Virus record (IMG/VR): IMGVR_UViG_3300021142_000007 | Coordinates: 71,400-135,399 of that record | Length of the DNA: 64,000 bases | Source: a virus | Strand: one strand, 5' to 3' | Shown here: piece by piece, positions 51,514-58,734 of the stretch | Layout of the letters: the number at the start of each line of letters is the position of its first letter | How positions within the stretch are numbered: position 1 is the first letter of the stretch | The notes under the pieces: generated by a model | The model's database searches: none | What the model was told of the DNA's origin: nothing | Seen by the model: the letters and a program-made list of their open reading frames with translations, nothing else | Translations under genes and position numbers: made by a program

Positions 51514-52635
51514 TTAATTTACTACTTGTGTGATGTGACCACCACCTATTACGTCTGCTGGATTTTCTGGGTCGTAAAAAACGCTAGATTGACCTGGCGT
51601 GATGGCCCTTACTTGATGATGAAAGTCAATCCTAATGCTTTCGTTATCCAAGCAAGTTACCGTCCCCAATACCGTCTTGCCTCGGTATCTTACGTTTGCA
51701 AGCACTTCCATGCCATTCAAGGCCTCGAACGGATACTTTATGGTATTCACCTTAGATACAATCATAGACTGCCTCATAAGGTCCTTTTCCCTACCAAGAG
51801 TTACTTCATTGGTCTTGGGGTTTATATCGGTTACATATAATGGGTCACCATCACATATCCCCAAGCCCCTTCTTTGACCAATAGTAAAATAAGGATAACC
51901 GTCATGGGTTCCGATTACCTTTCCGTTTACGTCCAGAAAATTTCCTTGGGTTATTTCACGCTTTCTTGATAAGAATGCACGATAGTTGTTATCTGGGATG
52001 AAACATATTTCATAGCTTTCGCTCTTCTTTGCCATGTCTGGATAACCCCTATCCAACGCCATTTGTCTTATTTGCGTCTTTTCATATCCACCAACTGGGA
52101 ATATAGTTCTTTTTAAAACATCTTGGGTTAAACCATGAAGAACATATGATTGGTCCTTGGTAGCGTCCACTCCGCTTGATAGGATATATCGGCCATTTTC
52201 GTTTCGTATGATAGCGTAGTGACCAGTTGCTATGTATTCACAATCCATCTTATCAGCAATGCTAAGCAAAGCACCCCATTTGATGTGTGTATTGCATAGG
52301 ATACAAGGGTTAGGAGTTCTGCCAGACATATACTCGTCAACGAAGTTATTAATAACAGCATCGCTGAAGTCTGTACGTATATCGTATATATAGTGTGGGA
52401 TATCATAGTCAACACAAATAGCCCTCGCATCATTGATGTCATCAAGAGAACAACAACCAGTTGTCTTCTTTGACCCCTCCGCAACGCCAGAACTAGCGTA
52501 GTCCCAAGTTTTCATGGTTACCCCGATAGGCAATGCTTCAGCTTCCTTCAAAAGAATAGCTGACACGGTACTATCGATACCTCCGCTACATGCTACGAGC
52601 ACCTTCTTTCCCTTTAAGTGTGTTAAATCATTCAT
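51514..52635 (-). CDS. mnmA: tRNA 2-thiouridylase MnmA
   Basis: SGGIDS, TPNPCILCN, ATGHY, KDQSY, ICF, TIGQRRG, TPGQ; start MNDL. Confidence 0.95.
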   Translation of the reverse strand: MNDLTHLKGKKVLVACSGGIDSTVSAILLKEAEALPIGVTMKTWDYASSGVAEGSKKTTGCCSLDDINDARAICVDYDIPHYIYDIRTDFSDAVINNFVDEYMSGRTPNPCILCNTHIKWGALLSIADKMDCEYIATGHYAIIRNENGRYILSSGVDATKDQSYVLHGLTQDVLKRTIFPVGGYEKTQIRQMALDRGYPDMAKKSESYEICFIPDNNYRAFLSRKREITQGNFLDVNGKVIGTHDGYPYFTIGQRRGLGICDGDPLYVTDINPKTNEVTLGREKDLMRQSMIVSKVNTIKYPFEALNGMEVLANVRYRGKTVLGTVTCLDNESIRIDFHHQVRAITPGQSSVFYDPENPADVIGGGHITQVVN

Positions 52636-52648
52636 GTCAGATTTTTTG

Positions 52649-52720
52649 AGCCTCCAGCCAGAACCGACCTGGCAATCTTTCCATACCACAGAGAGATTTT
52701 TCCTGTTAAACTATGGAGGC
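52649..52720 (-). tRNA. Degenerate tRNA-Thr(GGU)
   Basis: Acceptor GCCUCCA/UGGAGGC, loop GUGGUAU, T stem GCCAG/CUGGC with noncanonical loop GUCGGUU. Confidence 0.6.
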
Positions 52721-52728
52721 AATTTAAA

Positions 52729-53028
52729 ATAACAAGATGAGCTTAGCCGCGATTCTGTTATTATCTCATCATTTATCTGCAAGTTTTATCTTGCTGGAGG
52801 GTAACCCCTACCACGCACCTACCTGTCTATCATCGAGCTGAAGGTTCCCACTCTAAGACTGTTTGGCTTGCACCCTATGTTGCGGAAGTGCTAACGATAG
52901 CCTTGTTATCCCCTACACTAAGGGGTAGTCCTCTATCTCCTTCCTCCTTCTGAAAGGTGTCGCGAACTTCCTCTAAATCACCTATCCATTTCTGGGGCAA
53001 CTCAGCGATGAGTTCTCTGTCTTGTTAT
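52729..53028 (-). ncRNA. rnpB: RNase P RNA
   Basis: GAGGAAGUUCGCG ... AGAUAAAUGA ... AACAGAAUCGCGGCUAA (P4 with bulged U); P1 and P2 (CUCAUC/GAUGAG) pair; TAGCTTTG promoter at 53035-42. Confidence 0.88.
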
Positions 53029-53269
53029 ATAATACAAAGCTAAGCATTTATTTGGATAAATCCAAGTATTTTTGTAATAAATTATAAATTGCATCATAAG
53101 ATAATTCATTCATGCTACCAAATACCATTTGATAACCTCCAAATCCGTTTGGAAAAAGAGTAATACAAACACGATAACCACGGTTATTTGAGTACTGCAC
53201 CCAAATTCGTCTGTATTGAGGAAATGCTTGTTCAAGTTGTAATCCGTACATAATACTATAAATTTAATG

Positions 53270-53343
53270 TGACCCCAGCGAGGTTCGAACTCGCAACCTT
53301 CGCCTTAAGAGGGCGTAGCTACTTCCACATGAGCTTTGGAGTC
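53270..53343 (-). tRNA. tRNA-Lys(CUU)
   Basis: Cloverleaf, loop CUCUUAA; A at position 8. Confidence 0.85.
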
Positions 53344-54121
53344 AAAGTGATTTATTCCTTTTTACATAAGGAATGTTAAAAGAATCTAAGTGTTTATACA
53401 TTATTTTATAATTACCACCCTTTGCTGCTATATTTAAGTCTAATAATGCTTTTCTAATGTTCCCATTATTTCTTTTATACGCTTCAATATAATCTTGTGA
53501 TGTTAATTTAACAGTTTTATTTTTATCTGATATATTTCTACCTCGCCAAGTTTTTGTTAGTGAATGACAATTTGGACAGAGTGCGATTAAGTTATCTCTT
53601 TGATTATTTTTATTATTTCCGTCTTTATGCTCCAATTCAAGAACCAAATCACATTCCAACCATTTATCCAAACCACAATTAAAACATTTTTTATCTTGTT
53701 CCAAGATAACTCTCATTCTTAAATTATCAAATTTTAATGTGTTAAATTCGGCGTTTAAAATTTTATCTTCTTTAATTTTTTCTAGAAATTTATCACCTGT
53801 TACACCTTTAAATTTTGCTTGATAATACTCTTTCTCAAGTCTTTTATTTTTTTCTTTCTCAGTTTCAACCCTTTCTTTTGTTCTATAAGTGTTAGAACAA
53901 TATATCGAACAAAATTGATGATTTCTTGTTTTTATTTCTTTACCACATTTAAGACAAGTTATTACCTTAACCCTATAGATATTTTTACTTATATTTTTTA
54001 TTTTAGTTTTTTTACAATTATTACAATGGTACGATATTGTGGATTTTGAACATCCTAATATTTCTTTTATTTGATTATAGGTTTTACCTTCACTTCTTAA
54101 TTTTAATATTTCTTCTTTCAT
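53342..54121 (-). CDS. HTH-HNH homing endonuclease
   Basis: LELEHKDGN..NN..DNLIALCPNCH; N-terminal HTH. Confidence 0.85.
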   Translation of the reverse strand: MKEEILKLRSEGKTYNQIKEILGCSKSTISYHCNNCKKTKIKNISKNIYRVKVITCLKCGKEIKTRNHQFCSIYCSNTYRTKERVETEKEKNKRLEKEYYQAKFKGVTGDKFLEKIKEDKILNAEFNTLKFDNLRMRVILEQDKKCFNCGLDKWLECDLVLELEHKDGNNKNNQRDNLIALCPNCHSLTKTWRGRNISDKNKTVKLTSQDYIEAYKRNNGNIRKALLDLNIAAKGGNYKIMYKHLDSFNIPYVKRNKSL

Positions 54122-54185
54122 ATTAATAAATATATGTAAACTTAAGAAAATCGAACCAATACTTAAAAAAAATTTTTTTAACCTG

Positions 54186-54257
54186 TCTTCCCGCCGAGAG
54201 TCGAACTCGGCCCCATATGTTAAAAGCATATTGCATACACCAGTTTGCTACGAGAAG
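54186..54257 (-). tRNA. tRNA-Lys(UUU), atypical
   Basis: CUUCUCG/CGGGAAG acceptor, AUAUG-CUUUUAA-CAUAU. Confidence 0.8.
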
Positions 54258-54260
54258 GAT

Positions 54261-54336
54261 TGGTGCATCCAGTGGGCCTCGAACCCACAGCCTTCTCCTT
54301 AAAAGGGAGTAGCCCGTCCACTTGAGCTTTGGATGC
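54261..54336 (-). tRNA. tRNA-Lys(UUU)
   Basis: GCAUCCA/UGGAUGC-ACCA, loop CUUUUAA; A at position 8. Confidence 0.88.
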
Positions 54337-54395
54337 TTATTTAAGGACAATATCTTGTCCATTAGACATCCGTAGCTGTTGACCACAGATGCCTT

Positions 54396-54440
54396 TTAAC
54401 GTTTGGATTTTCGTTTAGAAGTTAAGGCAGTCTTTTTCAT
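54396..54440 (-). promoter_or_regulatory. Candidate Lys-rich leader ORF (MKKTALTSKRKSKR)
   Basis: 14-codon ORF with 5 Lys codons directly upstream of three tRNA-Lys genes, followed by hairpins. Confidence 0.45.
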
Positions 54441-54476
54441 AATGCGTTTTTTTATTTATGTTAAAAATAATTTTTG

Positions 54477-54563
54477 TGAGGTGAAAAGGAATCGAACCTA
54501 ATTCAGCATTGGTTTGCACAGGCGTTACAGTGCCCTACCGTGTCCATAACGGCCTACAACCTC
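54477..54563 (-). tRNA. Degenerate tRNA-Tyr(GUA)
   Basis: CUGUAA loop (8 nt), long variable arm, mismatched acceptor and T stems. Confidence 0.6.
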
Positions 54564-54659
54564 ATTTGTGCCTCTCTCTGCACCCGTCATACCATGTTGT
54601 ATTCTGTTAACCCCAAATGGGTCCTAACGGTAACACGAGTATCAAAAACCAGTATATTT

Positions 54660-54992
54660 TTATTTGAATAATTTACCTTTATAAAAGCTTTCAATAAAAG
54701 AATCGATATCTGTATCATCAATTAAATCTGGTGATAAAAATTTATTAACTTTGTTATTATAATCCATGTATCCAGATTTAGTGTTAGACACTAAAATATT
54801 AACACTACTTTCAGATATCACCTCTTCAAATACATGAATCCAATTTTCTAAATCCTCTCCTTCGTCTTCAAACTTTTTAACGGTAGTTTTCAACTTTTTA
54901 ATGAAGGTTTCGTTACCTTTTTTAGGTATGTAAAAATTCCATTCTTCACCTTCGTGACCGTTTCGTTCTTCTATCCAATAATATTTACTCAT
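54660..54992 (-). CDS. Hypothetical protein in tRNA array
   Basis: 110-aa ORF. Confidence 0.55.
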   Translation of the reverse strand: MSKYYWIEERNGHEGEEWNFYIPKKGNETFIKKLKTTVKKFEDEGEDLENWIHVFEEVISESSVNILVSNTKSGYMDYNNKVNKFLSPDLIDDTDIDSFIESFYKGKLFK

Positions 54993-55004
54993 ATTAATTT
55001 TTTT

Positions 55005-55045
55005 TGGAGTCGATAAGGTGAATCGAACACCCGTCCGAGCCTTGG
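55005..55045 (-). pseudogene. Stranded 3' half of tRNA-Gly
   Basis: CCAA-GGCUC-GGAC-GGGUG-UUCGAUU-CACCU-UAUCGAC-UCCA. Confidence 0.8.
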
Positions 55046-55046
55046 A

Positions 55047-55613
55047 TTAAAGCTCTATTAACCCAGCATGTATTTCTCTATGACAATTAGCACACACCAT
55101 AATACATTTATCAACTTCTTCTTTTAAAACATCCCAAGTTCTATTCATATAAGTCAATTCAAATTTTTTTTCCAATTGATTAATATGATGAAAATCTAAT
55201 GCTTGTATACATTTACTATAACCACAAATTTTACAAGCACCACCTTTATATTCAACTAATTTCTTTTTATTTAATCTTCTATGATTTAAACTAGCATCAA
55301 TATTTTTTTGTTTACGTTCATGTTCTGTTAATACTTTTTTGGGTGAAATATCTAAGTATTTTAAAACAGTAAATTTAGACCATCCAAATTTTTCAGCTGT
55401 TTTAGTTGAAGATTTTGTATCATTATAAAATTGTTGCATTAATTTAATTTCTTCTTCATTAGGCGACCTAAATTCGTTAAAATTTTCTAAACCAGCATTT
55501 TTACAATGATATGAAATTGTTCCTTTGGAACAATTTAATTCACTTATTATTTCACTATATGTCTTTCCACTTTTTCTTAATGAAATAATTTTTTCTTTTA
55601 AACTATCTTCCAT
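55047..55613 (-). CDS. HTH-HNH homing endonuclease
   Basis: GGACKICGY.KC..ALDFHH...KCIMVCANCHREIH. Confidence 0.88.
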   Translation of the reverse strand: MEDSLKEKIISLRKSGKTYSEIISELNCSKGTISYHCKNAGLENFNEFRSPNEEEIKLMQQFYNDTKSSTKTAEKFGWSKFTVLKYLDISPKKVLTEHERKQKNIDASLNHRRLNKKKLVEYKGGACKICGYSKCIQALDFHHINQLEKKFELTYMNRTWDVLKEEVDKCIMVCANCHREIHAGLIEL

Positions 55614-55661
55614 ACAATATTATTTATAATAATAAATATGTAGAAAGTTCAAAAAAGATTG

Positions 55662-55733
55662 AGCATCATACAGAAATCGAATCTGCGTCCCCACATTGGC
55701 AATGTGGTATAATAGCCACTATACGATATCGAC
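55662..55733 (-). tRNA. Chimeric tRNA-Gly(GCC) with unpaired acceptor stem
   Basis: Perfect anticodon arm CCACA-UUGCCAA-UGUGG, but 5' GUCGAUA does not pair with local AUGAUGC. Confidence 0.75.
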
Positions 55734-55796
55734 ATGAATACCGAGAAGCAATGCATTGCTTGTGGAAGTCTCGGTCCCAAACTTTAACCCACATTG

Positions 55797-55879
55797 TGCA
55801 GATAGAAGGAATCGAACCCTCTCCCTCTGGGTGGAAGCCAGATATACAAGTGCTTTCGCTACCGTTATACGATACCTGC
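55797..55879 (-). tRNA. tRNA-Gly(UCC) with expanded D loop
   Basis: GCAGGUA/UAUCUGC, UCUGG-CUUCCAC-CCAGA; GC-GAAA-GC insert in D loop. Confidence 0.8.
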
Positions 55880-55886
55880 AAATATT

Positions 55887-56507
55887 TTATTTTCGTCCTT
55901 TAATCCATCCATCGCTGATATATGAATCAAGGTCTTCTTTCTTAATCTTTTTATTCTCACCGTTTCTCGTTATCCAACAAGTTCCATACTGAGAGTTTGT
56001 TTGACCAACACCTATTCCTTTAGATGATTTACTCATTAATTTTTTCGTTTCATTTGAATGCTTTCTACCTTTCCAATTACATATGTTGTTTTCTAAATTA
56101 TTACCATTTTTCTCAAAATTTTTAATCCCACCTTTAGAACGCCAAATATTTAATTTATCATAATATTTTTCATCAGTGATTTTACGACCTTTTTTAACAC
56201 CTTCTATTGATATGTATCCACCTTCACCACCAATTACAAGATTCATACACAAATCTTCTCTAAGAAGTTCTTCATTTACAATTTCCTTCTCTCTCTTTTT
56301 TAATTCTTCCCTACTTGAACAAAATTCCAGTATCTCTTTCTCATGATTTTCTTTCCCATGATAATTGATAGAAAACCAAAGTCGTTTTCCGCTCCCAAAA
56401 TAACCATCATCCAGATTATCGGTTGAGTGCATTCCGATATAATATCTTTGTGTTACTTTACAAGTAATTTTATAGATATAATGATGTTTCCTTTCTTTCC
56501 TTGCCAT
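55887..56507 (-). CDS. GIY-YIG homing endonuclease with NUMOD3-like tail
   Basis: YIYKIT...YYIGMH...YFGSG; KGRKHSNETKKLMS. Confidence 0.88.
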   Translation of the reverse strand: MARKERKHHYIYKITCKVTQRYYIGMHSTDNLDDGYFGSGKRLWFSINYHGKENHEKEILEFCSSREELKKREKEIVNEELLREDLCMNLVIGGEGGYISIEGVKKGRKITDEKYYDKLNIWRSKGGIKNFEKNGNNLENNICNWKGRKHSNETKKLMSKSSKGIGVGQTNSQYGTCWITRNGENKKIKKEDLDSYISDGWIKGRK

Positions 56508-56553
56508 ATATTCATTTCTATATAAATATACGATAAGTACAAAAAGGTCAAGG

Positions 56554-56626
56554 AGCGAGAGATGGGAATCGAACCCACATTATTCCTACTTGGAAGGAAG
56601 GTGCCATGCCACTAGGCGACTCTCGC
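56554..56626 (-). tRNA. tRNA-Gly(UCC)
   Basis: GCGAGAG/CUCUCGC-U, loop CUUCCAA. Confidence 0.88.
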
Positions 56627-56629
56627 ATT

Positions 56630-56698
56630 ATCAATTTCTTAGTCATCATTTCTGATGTGCAGCTATCACTACGTGCAAGTGAATTGATTTAGATAGCT
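56630..56698 (-). ncRNA. HDV-like (theta-type) self-cleaving ribozyme
   Basis: P1 AGCUAUC/GAUAGCU, P2 AUCAAUUC/GAA(A)UUGAU, P3 ACU/AGU, L3 UGCACGU, P1.1 GC/GC, P4 CAUCA-GAAA-UGAUG, J4/2 ACUAA; starts right after the tRNA-Thr discriminator. Confidence 0.82.
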
Positions 56699-56778
56699 AG
56701 CCAGTGGAGAGACTCGAACTCCCGATGTTTGTGTGGCACTTTACAAAAGTGCTGTTGTCGCCGCTGAACCACACTGGC
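56699..56778 (-). tRNA. tRNA-Thr(UGU)
   Basis: GCCAGUG/CACUGGC, GCACU-UUUGUAA-AGUGC; 12-nt variable region. Confidence 0.85.
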
Positions 56779-56837
56779 ATTTTGATTTTTACGCTACTAC
56801 TAGTGCTAGTCTATAAAATCATAACAGTCTTGTCCTG

Positions 56838-56923
56838 TGAGAGTGGTAAGATTCGAACCTACTAAGCCTGTTAAGGCAACTGGGTTACAGCCAGCCCCAA
56901 CACTCCAACGTTGGCGCACTCCC
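56838..56923 (-). tRNA. tRNA-Tyr(GUA)
   Basis: GCUGG-CUGUAAC-CCAGU, long variable arm. Confidence 0.85.
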
Positions 56924-56979
56924 AAGATTATTTTCTATGATTCCGTGTACGGTCTATGAAAATATAACAGTCTAAAGCG

Positions 56980-57059
56980 TGGGATTATAAGGACTCGAAC
57001 CTTAGAACCCGAAGGAGCTGATTTACAGTCAGCTGCAATTGCCGCTATGCGATAATCCC
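56980..57059 (-). tRNA. tRNA-Tyr(GUA)
   Basis: GGGAUUA/UAAUCCC, GCUGA-CUGUAAA-UCAGC. Confidence 0.9.
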
Positions 57060-57127
57060 AAAAACAGAATGGCATGTTTGTTTCAAGTAAAAGTTTGATT
57101 TGTTAATTTGCTGTATCCATTCTTTAG

Positions 57128-57198
57128 TTGAGTCTGGTAGATTTGAACTACCATTTTCAGGGTCAAAACCTGACGAACTGCCATTATTCGAAGACTCA
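57128..57198 (-). tRNA. tRNA-Gln(UUG)
   Basis: UGAGUCU/AGACUCA, UCAGG-UUUUGAC-CCUGA. Confidence 0.88.
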
Positions 57199-57262
57199 AA
57201 ATCATTTTAACTATGGGACAATATATGTACTTCCTAAACTCGTATAGTACTAACCGAATATG

Positions 57263-57336
57263 TCGAGTGGGTCAGAATCGAACTGACTAACTGACGGCTC
57301 CAGACCGCCTGTGCTTAAAACCTTAGTCACCACTCG
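57263..57336 (-). tRNA. tRNA-Pro(UGG), atypical
   Basis: CGAGUGG/CCACUCG, loop UCUGGAG (C33), weak D arm. Confidence 0.65.
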
Positions 57337-57343
57337 TTAAAAG

Positions 57344-57416
57344 TAGGGCAAATGAGACTCGAACTCATAACCTCTCGGACCCAAACCGAGAAATCTGCCA
57401 ATTGATATACTGCCCT
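57344..57416 (-). tRNA. tRNA-Pro(UGG)
   Basis: AGGGCAG/UUGCCCU, CUCGG-UUUGGGU-CCGAG. Confidence 0.88.
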
Positions 57417-57473
57417 ATGAAAATCCAACATGTCAAAGTACACTTTGGTCAATTTTTTATTTGGTGACCTACC

Positions 57474-57515
57474 AAAAACTAAAAACCCTAGTCTGTTTTT
57501 ATTCGGACTAGGGTT
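57474..57515 (-). terminator. Intrinsic terminator (candidate attenuator) upstream of the tRNA array
   Basis: 10-bp stem AACCCUAGUC/GACUAGGGUU followed by UUUAGUUUUU. Confidence 0.85.
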
Positions 57516-57543
57516 ATCATATCTTGTTTTTCTTTTGTCTGGG

Positions 57544-57651
57544 TTAAACCCATTCACCTTCGAAAGCGACACACATAACCTGTCCTCTTGGCCCTTGTTT
57601 ACCTTGGCCTTGCGGTTTTCCTGTATACTGATATGTGGTCGTCTTTTTCAT
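57544..57651 (-). promoter_or_regulatory. Leader peptide ORF (35 aa) of the tRNA operon
   Basis: MKKTTTYQYTGKPQGQGKQGPRGQVMCVAFEGEWV between the promoter (57716-23) and the terminator. Confidence 0.75.
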
Positions 57652-57915
57652 TTCTTTTTTGTCTTGTGGGTTGCCCCGTTTTTAATTAAATATCTCTTTG
57701 TTTATAAATGTACTGCAAAGGTACTAAACTTTTTTTATTTTGTCAAGCTTTTTGCAGTATTTTTTTAAAATAATAATCGTGTTGCCTTGTTATACACTAC
57801 TCTCTGATGTTTAGCACTTGGCTTTCTGGAAGTTGGAATTGAACCAAAACTATCATTATTTCAATACAAAGGTACGGGTTTTTTTTGATACTTGCAAGCT
57901 TTTCCTAAAAAATAT

Positions 57916-58272
57916 TTAGGGTTCGTCTTCCGAAGATTCATCTTCTATAACTTCTTCTACCTTCTCACTTACTTCATCAATGGTTTCGCTTACCTCGTCC
58001 ATTGTCTCTTGAAGACTAGACAATCCGCTGGAAAGCACTTGTCTGGTTTCTTCGTTTTCTATTGCTTGACGGTTTACACTCATTTGAATGAAGATGCTAA
58101 GGTATATGGCTTCAAGCGACACTATGGTTGTAAGAACCAATAGAACATCACTGCTTGAAAAACCAAAGAGTATAAGTGAACACATGAACACAAAGAAAAC
58201 ACTATGTAAGAATAATGATGATGGGGTTCCTACCCAGAATATCATTTTATCGATTAGTGTTTTCTTTTTCAT
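57916..58272 (-). CDS. DUF1003-like membrane protein
   Basis: WVGT...LTTIVSLEAIYLSIFIQMSVNR. Confidence 0.75.
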   Translation of the reverse strand: MKKKTLIDKMIFWVGTPSSLFLHSVFFVFMCSLILFGFSSSDVLLVLTTIVSLEAIYLSIFIQMSVNRQAIENEETRQVLSSGLSSLQETMDEVSETIDEVSEKVEEVIEDESSEDEP

Positions 58273-58278
58273 GTCTTG

Positions 58279-58734
58279 TTACTCCTTTTTTCTTGTTCTT
58301 TTCTTAGGTTTTTCAACTGCTGGATTCATCTTATCTCTTAGTTCAGCAGCCTTTTCATAGTCTTCTTTTTCTAGGGCCTCTTGAAGTTGCTCTTCAAGCG
58401 TTTTCTCCACGAGCTTGGGTTCTTCAACCCTACCACCAAGCCTCTTAGGGTCATCCGTTACGATTACCTTAACGATATCTCCTTGTGGCGTGTGCCATAT
58501 CCTTTTTTCGAAATACAGAACACCATCAAATCCAGATTCTATTTCATCTGGGTCACCGAGGTTAGTATCCAGCGTCCTTTCCATACCTTCCAATGGTATA
58601 GCAGATTCAAGACCCATCATCATCTCAATCATCTTCCTAGCTTCATCTCTAAGCCTAGAGGTATCGCTATTCTTTTTGGGTTTGTTTCTGTTATTTAAAA
58701 AGTCATTAAACAAATCGTTAAAACCTTTATCCAT
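58279..58734 (-). CDS. UVR (UvrB/C) domain protein
   Basis: LQEALEKEDYEKAAELRD. Confidence 0.75.
   Translation of the reverse strand: MDKGFNDLFNDFLNNRNKPKKNSDTSRLRDEARKMIEMMMGLESAIPLEGMERTLDTNLGDPDEIESGFDGVLYFEKRIWHTPQGDIVKVIVTDDPKRLGGRVEEPKLVEKTLEEQLQEALEKEDYEKAAELRDKMNPAVEKPKKRTRKKE

Follow-up and report, generated by a model that had tools for sequence, protein, structure and literature searches.

How might a large phage adjust the expression of the tRNA genes that it carries? We addressed this question at a locus of the IMG/VR virus record IMGVR_UViG_3300021142_000007. The stretch analysed, hereafter the window, comprises the last 64 kb of this 135,399-bp record and has a G+C content of 36%. 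On its minus strand, where all of the window features described below lie, a promoter, a 35-codon open reading frame (ORF) and an intrinsic terminator stand ahead of an array of tRNA genes for Pro, Gln, Tyr, Thr, Gly and Lys. Judged by its anatomy, the unit appears to belong to the leader-peptide attenuators and would work as they do. It likely represents a ribosome-mediated transcription attenuator that sets expression of the array by the speed at which Pro, Gln, Tyr, Thr, Gly and Lys codons in the leader are decoded. Units of the same anatomy recur ahead of many phage tRNA arrays, and the content of each leader co-varies with the tRNAs of the array that follows it. From these observations we infer that the leader is translated, that stalling favours readthrough, and that the whole array is co-transcribed.

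The leader ORF (57651-57544) begins with ATG, has 35 codons and a stop, and reads MKKTTTYQYTGKPQGQGKQGPRGQVMCVAFEGEWV. It follows a promoter at 57746-57716, composed of TTGACA (57746-57741), a 17-nt spacer and TACCTTTG (57723-57716). The first-pass annotation of this DNA had proposed the order promoter, 35-codon ORF, terminator, first tRNA, and we found all four where it had placed them on the minus strand. A recount of the codons returned the same figures as well. Codons 2-21 are all (20/20) Lys, Thr, Tyr, Gln, Gly or Pro codons, as are 22 of the 23 control codons (codons 2-24, 57648-57580). The run of 20 is the longest of its kind in all six frames of the contig, a search space of about 270,000 codons, and the next longest is 11. 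These six residues make up 31.3% of the residues in long ORFs, which puts the chance of a run of 20 at ~8e-11 per position. The A/C/G-rich composition of the leader would by itself favour Lys, Thr, Gln, Pro and Gly codons, as expected if the resemblance were a coincidence or the ORF an ordinary small protein gene lying before tRNAs. Given that the run is unique among so many codons, and given the comparisons described below, we regard that explanation as scarcely credible.

The downstream array spans 57416-52648 as delimited by ARAGORN and Rfam. ARAGORN called Pro-TGG, Gln-TTG, Tyr-GTA, Thr-TGT, Gly-TCC, two copies of Lys-TTT, Lys-CTT and Thr-GGT; Rfam added a second Gly-UCC, a partial Gly-GCC and a weak class-II tRNA match at 56923-56839, which we read by eye as a second Tyr-GUA. 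Neither program found any isotype other than Pro, Gln, Tyr, Thr, Gly and Lys in the array. The six amino acids of codons 2-21 are thus the sole isotypes found in the array, as the first-pass annotation had claimed. The only other tRNA gene on the contig, for Glu, lies away from the array and has no leader.

If the leader reports on the tRNAs that follow it, then leaders of other phages should change together with their arrays, a comparison that the first-pass annotation had set in advance. The gene for a DUF1003 protein, encoded just upstream of the unit, was used to gather 20 IMG/VR loci. In 5 of the 20 there is a downstream tRNA array. Ahead of each of these arrays stand a promoter, a small ORF and a terminator, and the peptide encoded by the ORF names the tRNAs that follow: TAVATTTPVTGG precedes tRNAs for Pro, Ala, Thr, Gly and Val, for instance, and YEGAYGYEG those for Tyr, Glu and Gly. 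Two motif searches added 87 loci, for a total of 107 loci from IMG/VR and GenBank phage contigs in addition to the window. A unit was called where a hairpin of -11 kcal/mol or lower, followed by a U-run, ended no more than 200 nt before a tRNA, and where the longest ATG-initiated ORF of at least 15 codons ended no more than 110 nt upstream of the hairpin or no more than 12 nt into it. The tRNAs of each locus were taken from ARAGORN calls only, and several arrays run off the end of their locus. This rule yielded 44 units with 33 distinct peptides, which we grouped by eye into about 17 modules with different tRNA sets.

The outcome was strongly positive. In 30 of the 33 cases no amino acid of the downstream array is missing from its leader, and in-set runs extend to 34 residues. 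Using one representative of each of the 17 modules, a likely false positive included, the mean F1 score of leader against own array was 0.72, compared to 0.41 +/- 0.03 (maximum 0.53) after re-pairing; not one of 100,000 derangements matched as well as the true pairs. The signal resides in the reading frame of the leader: precision and recall were 0.60 and 0.96 in frame, versus 0.29/0.70 and 0.27/0.63 in the other two frames. Leader-array pairs include HIQPQHQPQ with Pro/His/Gln, QQIQQQQ with three Gln tRNAs, SKHSKHSSFSSKWF with Trp/His/Phe/Lys/Ser and LDILVVLSVAVLLWDDAAEE with Asp/Glu/Val/Leu/Ala/Trp. Two unannotated huge-phage genomes provide further cases. In LR745206.1, three Gln tRNAs follow a leader rich in Gln, and a Pro/Asp/Gln leader precedes tRNAs for Pro and Asp; in LR756501.1, five Leu tRNAs follow a Leu-rich leader. 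Together, such leaders and arrays span almost every isotype, Trp, Cys, Met and Leu among them. Peptides of different modules have nothing in common but a short N-terminal Met-Lys-Asn-like start, which, like the failure of every re-pairing to reproduce the match, argues against chance or an ordinary small protein gene. One unit that passed the filter (L061, 7817-7903) does look like a false positive and is the kind of case that coincidence would produce.

We next consider the RNA structures that could couple the leader to the array. The intrinsic terminator comprises a stem at 57515-57486 and a U-tract extending to 57474. The hairpin with its U-run (57520-57474) folds at -16 kcal/mol (z -4.52), and 0 of 200 shuffles were as good. 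A simple terminator scan omitted it, since its loop of 12 nt exceeds the limit of 8 set in that tool. The leader as a whole folds with z -4.48, and the terminator is part of its minimum free energy fold. Four segments can be distinguished. Segment 1 (57646-57627) lies in the Lys/Thr/Tyr/Gln control codons 2-9 and forms the 5' strand of helix 1:2. Segment 2 (57585-57562, codons 23-30) contains the 3' strand of that helix (57583-57563) and overlaps the antiterminator strand (57585-57575). Segment 3 (57518-57505) is the 5' arm of the terminator and the alternative partner of segment 2. Segment 4, with the U-rich tract, occupies 57495-57474, the 3' arm proper being 57495-57486.

Helix 1:2 (57646-57627 with 57583-57563) has 18 predicted pairs, and a corresponding hairpin, with energies from -16 to -22.5 kcal/mol and differing sequences, is predicted in all seven leaders of the module to which the window belongs (family B). 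Helix 2:3 (57585-57575 with 57517-57505) is a predicted duplex of -12.4 kcal/mol. In an alignment of this module (A1), helix 2:3 pairs in 94.6% of cells, compared to at most 60.7% when the strands are slid. RNAalifold recovered the terminator from the same alignment and gave a weak consensus for 1:2, because MAFFT misaligns the 3' strands. When the modules are compared, 19 of 33 leaders contain, in the 3' portion of the ORF, a stretch more complementary to the terminator 5' arm than dinucleotide shuffles are (p <= 0.05; mean z -2.39), and the antiterminator sequences differ from module to module. Taken together, the co-variation of leaders with arrays and the recurrence of the 1:2, 2:3 and 3:4 anatomy with different sequences in other modules support the attenuator reading that the first-pass annotation had offered.

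Leader evolution bears signs of decoding. Leaders homologous to that of the window are present in L067, L068, L084, L087, L102 and L103, and a substitution test was applied to 21 homologous leaders from the five modules having at least two members. Within the control regions, 42 of 100 minimal codon changes are synonymous, and 32 of 48 variable columns stay fully within the amino acid set of the array, a property expected of about a third of random non-synonymous single-base changes. In the tails beyond segment 2 none of 31 variable columns does so. One natural variant in metagenome contigs, at 57630, replaces the Gln of codon 8 by Lys; both belong to the set, although this is a single case and anecdotal.

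These patterns bear on whether the leader is read by ribosomes or acts as RNA. An untranslated leader could, in the fashion of a T-box, bind tRNAs through codon-like triplets, and its place before genes of the translation apparatus and its terminator/antiterminator alternatives are indeed T-box-like. The ATG start and stop found in all units do not help to discriminate, as the filter required them. However, the match to the tRNA set is frame-specific, synonymous changes dominate and the non-synonymous ones stay in the set, as decoding predicts. In addition, cmscan of 52000-58500 at E <= 1 returned neither a T-box nor any other riboswitch family; its matches were to the tRNA clan, weakly to RNase P, and to Plastid-ycf2 in antisense over the tRNAs. 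Ten or more consecutive specifier triplets would, to our knowledge, be without precedent. An RNA-only switch is therefore very improbable.

A decoded leader could control the array as follows. Host RNA polymerase would start at the promoter at 57746-57716, and a ribosome would begin translating the 35-codon leader. Were any control codon from 2 to about 18 read slowly, because the cognate tRNA is scarce or uncharged, the stalled ribosome would cover segment 1. Segment 2 would then be free to pair with segment 3, the terminator would be blocked, and polymerase would enter the array. With fast decoding, the ribosome would move on to segment 2 (codons 23-30) during the synthesis of segments 3 and 4; these would pair as the 3:4 terminator, and transcription would end 58 nt before tRNA-Pro. 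Since the product of the array relieves the signal, the result would be negative feedback: a homeostat, with an OR gate over six isotypes, acting on the array's own tRNA supply. A footprint model is consistent with this scheme; it takes the equilibrium structure of the nascent transcript as far as segment 3 and keeps an assumed 30 nt around the A site unpaired. In 27 of 33 leaders, segment 3 is predicted to be paired when the A site lies in the control run and to lose that pairing when it lies later; in the window segment 3 is predicted to be paired when the A site is at codons 2-18 and to have lost the pairing from codon 19.

Several observations weigh against this interpretation. Codon 22 of the leader is Arg (AGA), for which the array has no matching tRNA. 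The loci were gathered via two sequence motifs and so form a non-random sample of phages, and 25 of 63 array starts in the fetched loci have no unit under our filter. Of seven such starts that we inspected, one follows an inserted transposase-like ORF and the other six follow protein-coding genes or sequence with uncalled tRNA-like pieces. Synonymous codons are a further point. The first-pass annotation had described the leader as stepping through synonymous codons that match the encoded anticodons. The stepping is real in the window, where every in-set codon is readable by the array anticodons if the partial Gly-GCC is counted (about 18.6 of 23 expected by chance), but over the leaders as a whole, with the likely false positive left out, 274 of 330 codons were readable versus 257.9 expected from codon usage. 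Tuning to particular synonymous codons is not supported beyond chance, and we set it aside. Leader codon counts correlate weakly with tRNA gene copy numbers (Spearman 0.24, n = 113, p = 0.011). The leader-array match is shown for amino acid isotypes, not for synonymous codons and anticodons.

The helices contribute reservations of their own. The antiterminator pairing that had been put forward for 57585-57575 and 57517-57505 is stable as a duplex but, taken alone, is not significant against shuffles (p = 0.147), and in A1 helix 2:3 shows 1 compensatory pair and a shuffle control that is likewise not significant (146/500). In an equilibrium fold of the nascent RNA lacking any footprint, segment 3 is also partly paired (8/12 nt). 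The leader stop codon lies 29 nt past segment 2, so that termination needs either ribosome timing or re-formation of helix 1:2, not a ribosome parked at the stop. Finally, a half-copy (57433-57415) of a structured spacer element abuts tRNA-Pro, and tRNA promoters of another type may exist within the array.

The position of the stop codon makes the picture of a parked ribosome inexact and gives some footing to a different logic, in which efficient translation promotes readthrough, or in which the terminator is constitutive, other promoters serve the array, and the peptide reports on translation for some other purpose. Such a logic would also accommodate the conserved, array-specific spacer elements, with one half-copy directly before tRNA-Pro, and the RNase P-like RNA and Thr-GGU gene near the end of the array, which have a promoter of their own. 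In contrast, most leaders have their antiterminator strand immediately 3' of the control codons, and the classical direction emerges from the footprint model in 27 of all 33. No copy of the promoter pattern TTG-N17-23-TAnnTTTG was found on the coding strand between 57716 and 53065. A simple scan for sigma-70-type promoters gave 29 matches versus 23.3 +/- 5.5 in shuffles, that is, no excess. The spacer motif occurs only in the tRNA array of this contig, and so is not a general phage promoter. We consider a reversed or otherwise different logic improbable, and retain the classical attenuator as the preferred reading.

The spacer elements themselves lie between tRNA genes, at 56972 to ~56925 and 56829 to ~56780 in the window. 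Each has an invariant head of 8 bases, followed in turn by a 7-mer that varies, ATAG, a hairpin that also varies, and the reverse complement of the 7-mer; the element starts 3-9 nt past one tRNA, and the next tRNA follows 31-41 nt past the motif. The element is found in many loci (e.g. L007, L068 and L081). Its stem co-varies: the complement of the 7-mer is exact in 29 of 54 instances, which involve 11 different 7-mers, compared to 3.6 expected with swapped 7-mers. The motif was considered as an internal promoter and set aside in view of its array-only occurrence and co-varying stem. It has no match in Rfam. As guesses, it could be a processing signal or a ribozyme.

For what benefit might such a control have been selected? 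The first-pass annotation had proposed counter-defence. In that case the attenuator would be the same and only its physiological trigger would differ: it would sense the loss of tRNAs, whether host anticodon nucleases or an attack of the phage itself on host tRNAs had destroyed them, and would switch on replacements. Carried further, the leader would be a six-channel detector of tRNA loss in an inducible counter-defence, releasing tRNAs only when one channel trips, and the distributed detectors of huge phages would between them span nearly the entire genetic code. Anticodon nucleases are known to attack tRNAs for Lys, Tyr and Thr, and tRNAs encoded by phages are known to compensate for such attacks. 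The array includes all three isotypes, an OR gate over many isotypes would suit an unpredictable attack, and a gene resembling a tRNA 2-thiouridylase adjoins the array. However, the leaders cover nearly all isotypes, Trp, Cys, Met and Leu among them, and a design that serves arrays of nearly every isotype argues for general supply-and-demand control. No defence or anti-defence gene was linked to the unit in this analysis, and the sensor would be blind to the difference between cleavage, low abundance and poor charging. We therefore view counter-defence, both as the selective origin of the attenuator and in the form of a multichannel detector, as possible but unlikely.

The sequence surrounding the unit is consistent with a promoter cassette used repeatedly by this phage. 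The window has 35 copies of the pattern TTG-N17-23-TAnnTTTG on its coding strand versus 8 on the other, and those on the coding strand typically lie 20-40 nt ahead of a start codon; we take this consensus to be of the Bacteroidota type. Between the promoter and the leader ORF lies an A-rich 5' untranslated leader (57715-57652) of about 58-64 nt with a small hairpin at 57677-57668, and the segment directly 3' of the promoter is conserved among family-B relatives. In metagenome run X4, the depth of DNA contigs is many-fold higher over 57680-57753, as expected for a repeated promoter and untranslated-region cassette. Over the stretch, metagenome DNA contigs show five single-base variants and two one-base length variants; a look-up of RNA runs containing the stretch returned none. 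Further upstream, the promoter recurs at 57897-57867 ahead of a 19-codon ORF (57851-57792) that has no clear terminator, an arrangement that may be a decayed leader cassette. The region after this second copy (57930-57750) showed no significant similarity among the fetched loci.

The contig has a CheckV completeness of 36% and is thus a fragment of a much larger phage. Its minus strand carries 47 of the 52 window ORFs of at least 150 codons. Of ten large ORFs tested, eight matched phage protein families, three of them with named functions (a nuclease, a DNA transfer protein and a nicotinamide phosphoribosyltransferase). A blastn search with 57300-58000 against cultured and deposited phages returned no match, and one with the array (56540-57480) returned matches to single tRNAs only, in 188 records; no close cultured relative was found.

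Within the array, tRNA-Pro (UGG; 57416-57343), called by both ARAGORN and Rfam, is the first gene and begins 58 nt past the U-tract. It is followed by Gln-UUG (57198-57127), Tyr-GUA (57059-56979), the second Tyr-GUA-like class-II tRNA already mentioned, Thr-UGU (56778-56699) and Gly-UCC (56626-56552), the named anticodons being ARAGORN calls. Between tRNA-Pro and tRNA-Gln we noted by eye an odd tRNA-like element (57336-57263) whose acceptor stem and T arm are perfect, whose D arm is irregular and whose anticodon-loop position 33 is C; neither ARAGORN nor Rfam called it. ARAGORN also reported Pro, Gly, Val and Thr tRNAs of 80-91 nt with an enlarged variable region in L007, L015, L024, L028 and the window (56778-56699), all of them normally short-armed isotypes.

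The array is then interrupted by a GIY-YIG ORF (56507-55887). Beyond it lie the second Gly-UCC (55879-55797), found by Rfam and bearing an enlarged D-loop with a 13-nt insertion, and the partial Gly-GCC (55724-55670, Rfam), whose acceptor stem is absent in place. An HNH ORF (55613-55047) interrupts the array a second time. By eye, ~55045-55005, just past the HNH ORF, could supply the 3' acceptor strand and T arm of Gly-GCC, which suggests that this gene was split or partly duplicated through insertion of the endonuclease. The two Lys-UUU genes (54336-54261 and 54257-54185) follow, then a helix-turn-helix/zinc-ribbon ORF (54229-53342), which looks HNH-like by eye and has no Pfam HNH match, and Lys-CUU (53343-53269); the Lys genes are ARAGORN calls. 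About 60 nt before the Lys-UUU/Lys-UUU/Lys-CUU group there is a 14-codon Lys-rich ORF (54440-54396) that may be due to chance; no strong terminator follows it, and the unit finder did not call it. In the related loci L067 and L068, the Pro-Gln-Tyr-Thr-Gly-Lys module is found in a compact form.

The end of the array (53065-52648) comprises a promoter (53065-53035), an RNase P-like RNA (53024-52729) and tRNA-Thr (GGU; 52720-52648). As this unit has its own promoter, Thr-GGU is probably outside the control of the leader's terminator. The RNase P-like RNA is 296 nt long and matches the bacterial class A model of Rfam at 28.2 bits (gathering score 100) with an E value of 3.6e-07 on 461 bases; the match covers the entire model, with the conserved core stretches kept. 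A search of the contig and of four relatives' records with the RF00010 profile found no RNase P match, so that the identity rests on the cmscan result. Directly past the tRNA region lies the MnmA-type tRNA 2-thiouridylase-like gene (52689-51514; Pfam tRNA_Me_trans, E 2.6e-64). Its presence alongside Lys, Gln and, elsewhere, Glu tRNAs suggests that the phage also supplies the wobble-uridine modification.

If the attenuator operates as proposed, it would constitute a simple, protein-free homeostat for decoding capacity, and would account for the ability of large phages, with their dozens of tRNA genes, to refrain from tRNA synthesis that is not needed. Each leader would be a roster, readable from sequence, of the tRNAs that share one transcription unit. 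The arrangement also renders testable the question of why phages carry tRNAs, that is, compensation of codon usage versus replacement of degraded or cleaved host tRNAs, and it offers compact, programmable, codon-specific sensors for synthetic biology.

How does this unit compare with known systems? Phage tRNAs compensate a codon-usage mismatch or replace tRNAs cleaved by host defences. Those accounts share with ours a rationale for carrying tRNAs and a demand that might vary during infection; they differ in that, in the literature searched, we found no sensor or inducible control of tRNA genes described. Like the proposed phage switch, the T-box chooses between terminator and antiterminator according to the state of a particular tRNA, and the genes under its control are related to translation. 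It differs in binding uncharged tRNA directly and in being untranslated, whereas the phage leader's signal is frame-specific. The nearest published inducible tRNA array is the trn operon of Anabaena sp. PCC 7120, which, according to the relevant sections of PMC8421152 and PMC10272220, is likewise a supernumerary, horizontally mobile array that stays silent until translation is impaired. There, as these same sections describe it, a ribbon-helix-helix repressor, TrcR, acts on promoter repeats, in contrast to the mechanism proposed here. The strings 'leader' and 'attenuat' have 0 occurrences in the main text of either article. More generally, we found no account of leader-peptide attenuation of tRNA genes in the full-text literature searched.

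In the E. coli pheST operon, attenuation at the pheM leader controls phenylalanyl-tRNA synthetase. As proposed for the phage, leader-peptide attenuation is applied there to a component of the translation apparatus and not to amino acid synthesis; unlike in the phage, a single isotype is sensed, and a protein enzyme is regulated rather than tRNAs. The leader-peptide attenuators of enterobacteria include thr (Thr and Ile codons), ilvGMEDA (Ile/Leu/Val), trp, his, leu and phe. Multivalent attenuation of such amino acid operons is treated in PMC1183508 and PMC3082878. The phage unit resembles the enterobacterial attenuators in several respects. A short ORF has a promoter on one side and an intrinsic terminator on the other, its control codons are cognate to the product under control, the predicted 1:2, 2:3 and 3:4 helices would exclude one another, and the whole would read out ribosome speed. 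The phage unit differs in that it would regulate tRNA genes instead of biosynthetic enzymes, so that the product would act directly on the step that is sensed. Where the enterobacterial leaders sense one to three isotypes, this leader would sense six, and those of its relatives up to 13. Moreover, it is found in a phage with promoters that we take to be of the Bacteroidota type, and one genome carries several such units, each with its own roster. In classical attenuation, the speed of the ribosome controls the synthesis of amino acids; here it would apparently control the supply of tRNAs, with the product feeding back on the sensed step. What is new relative to the classical systems is thus the use of tRNA genes as the regulated product and the multiplexing of a single leader over many isotypes.

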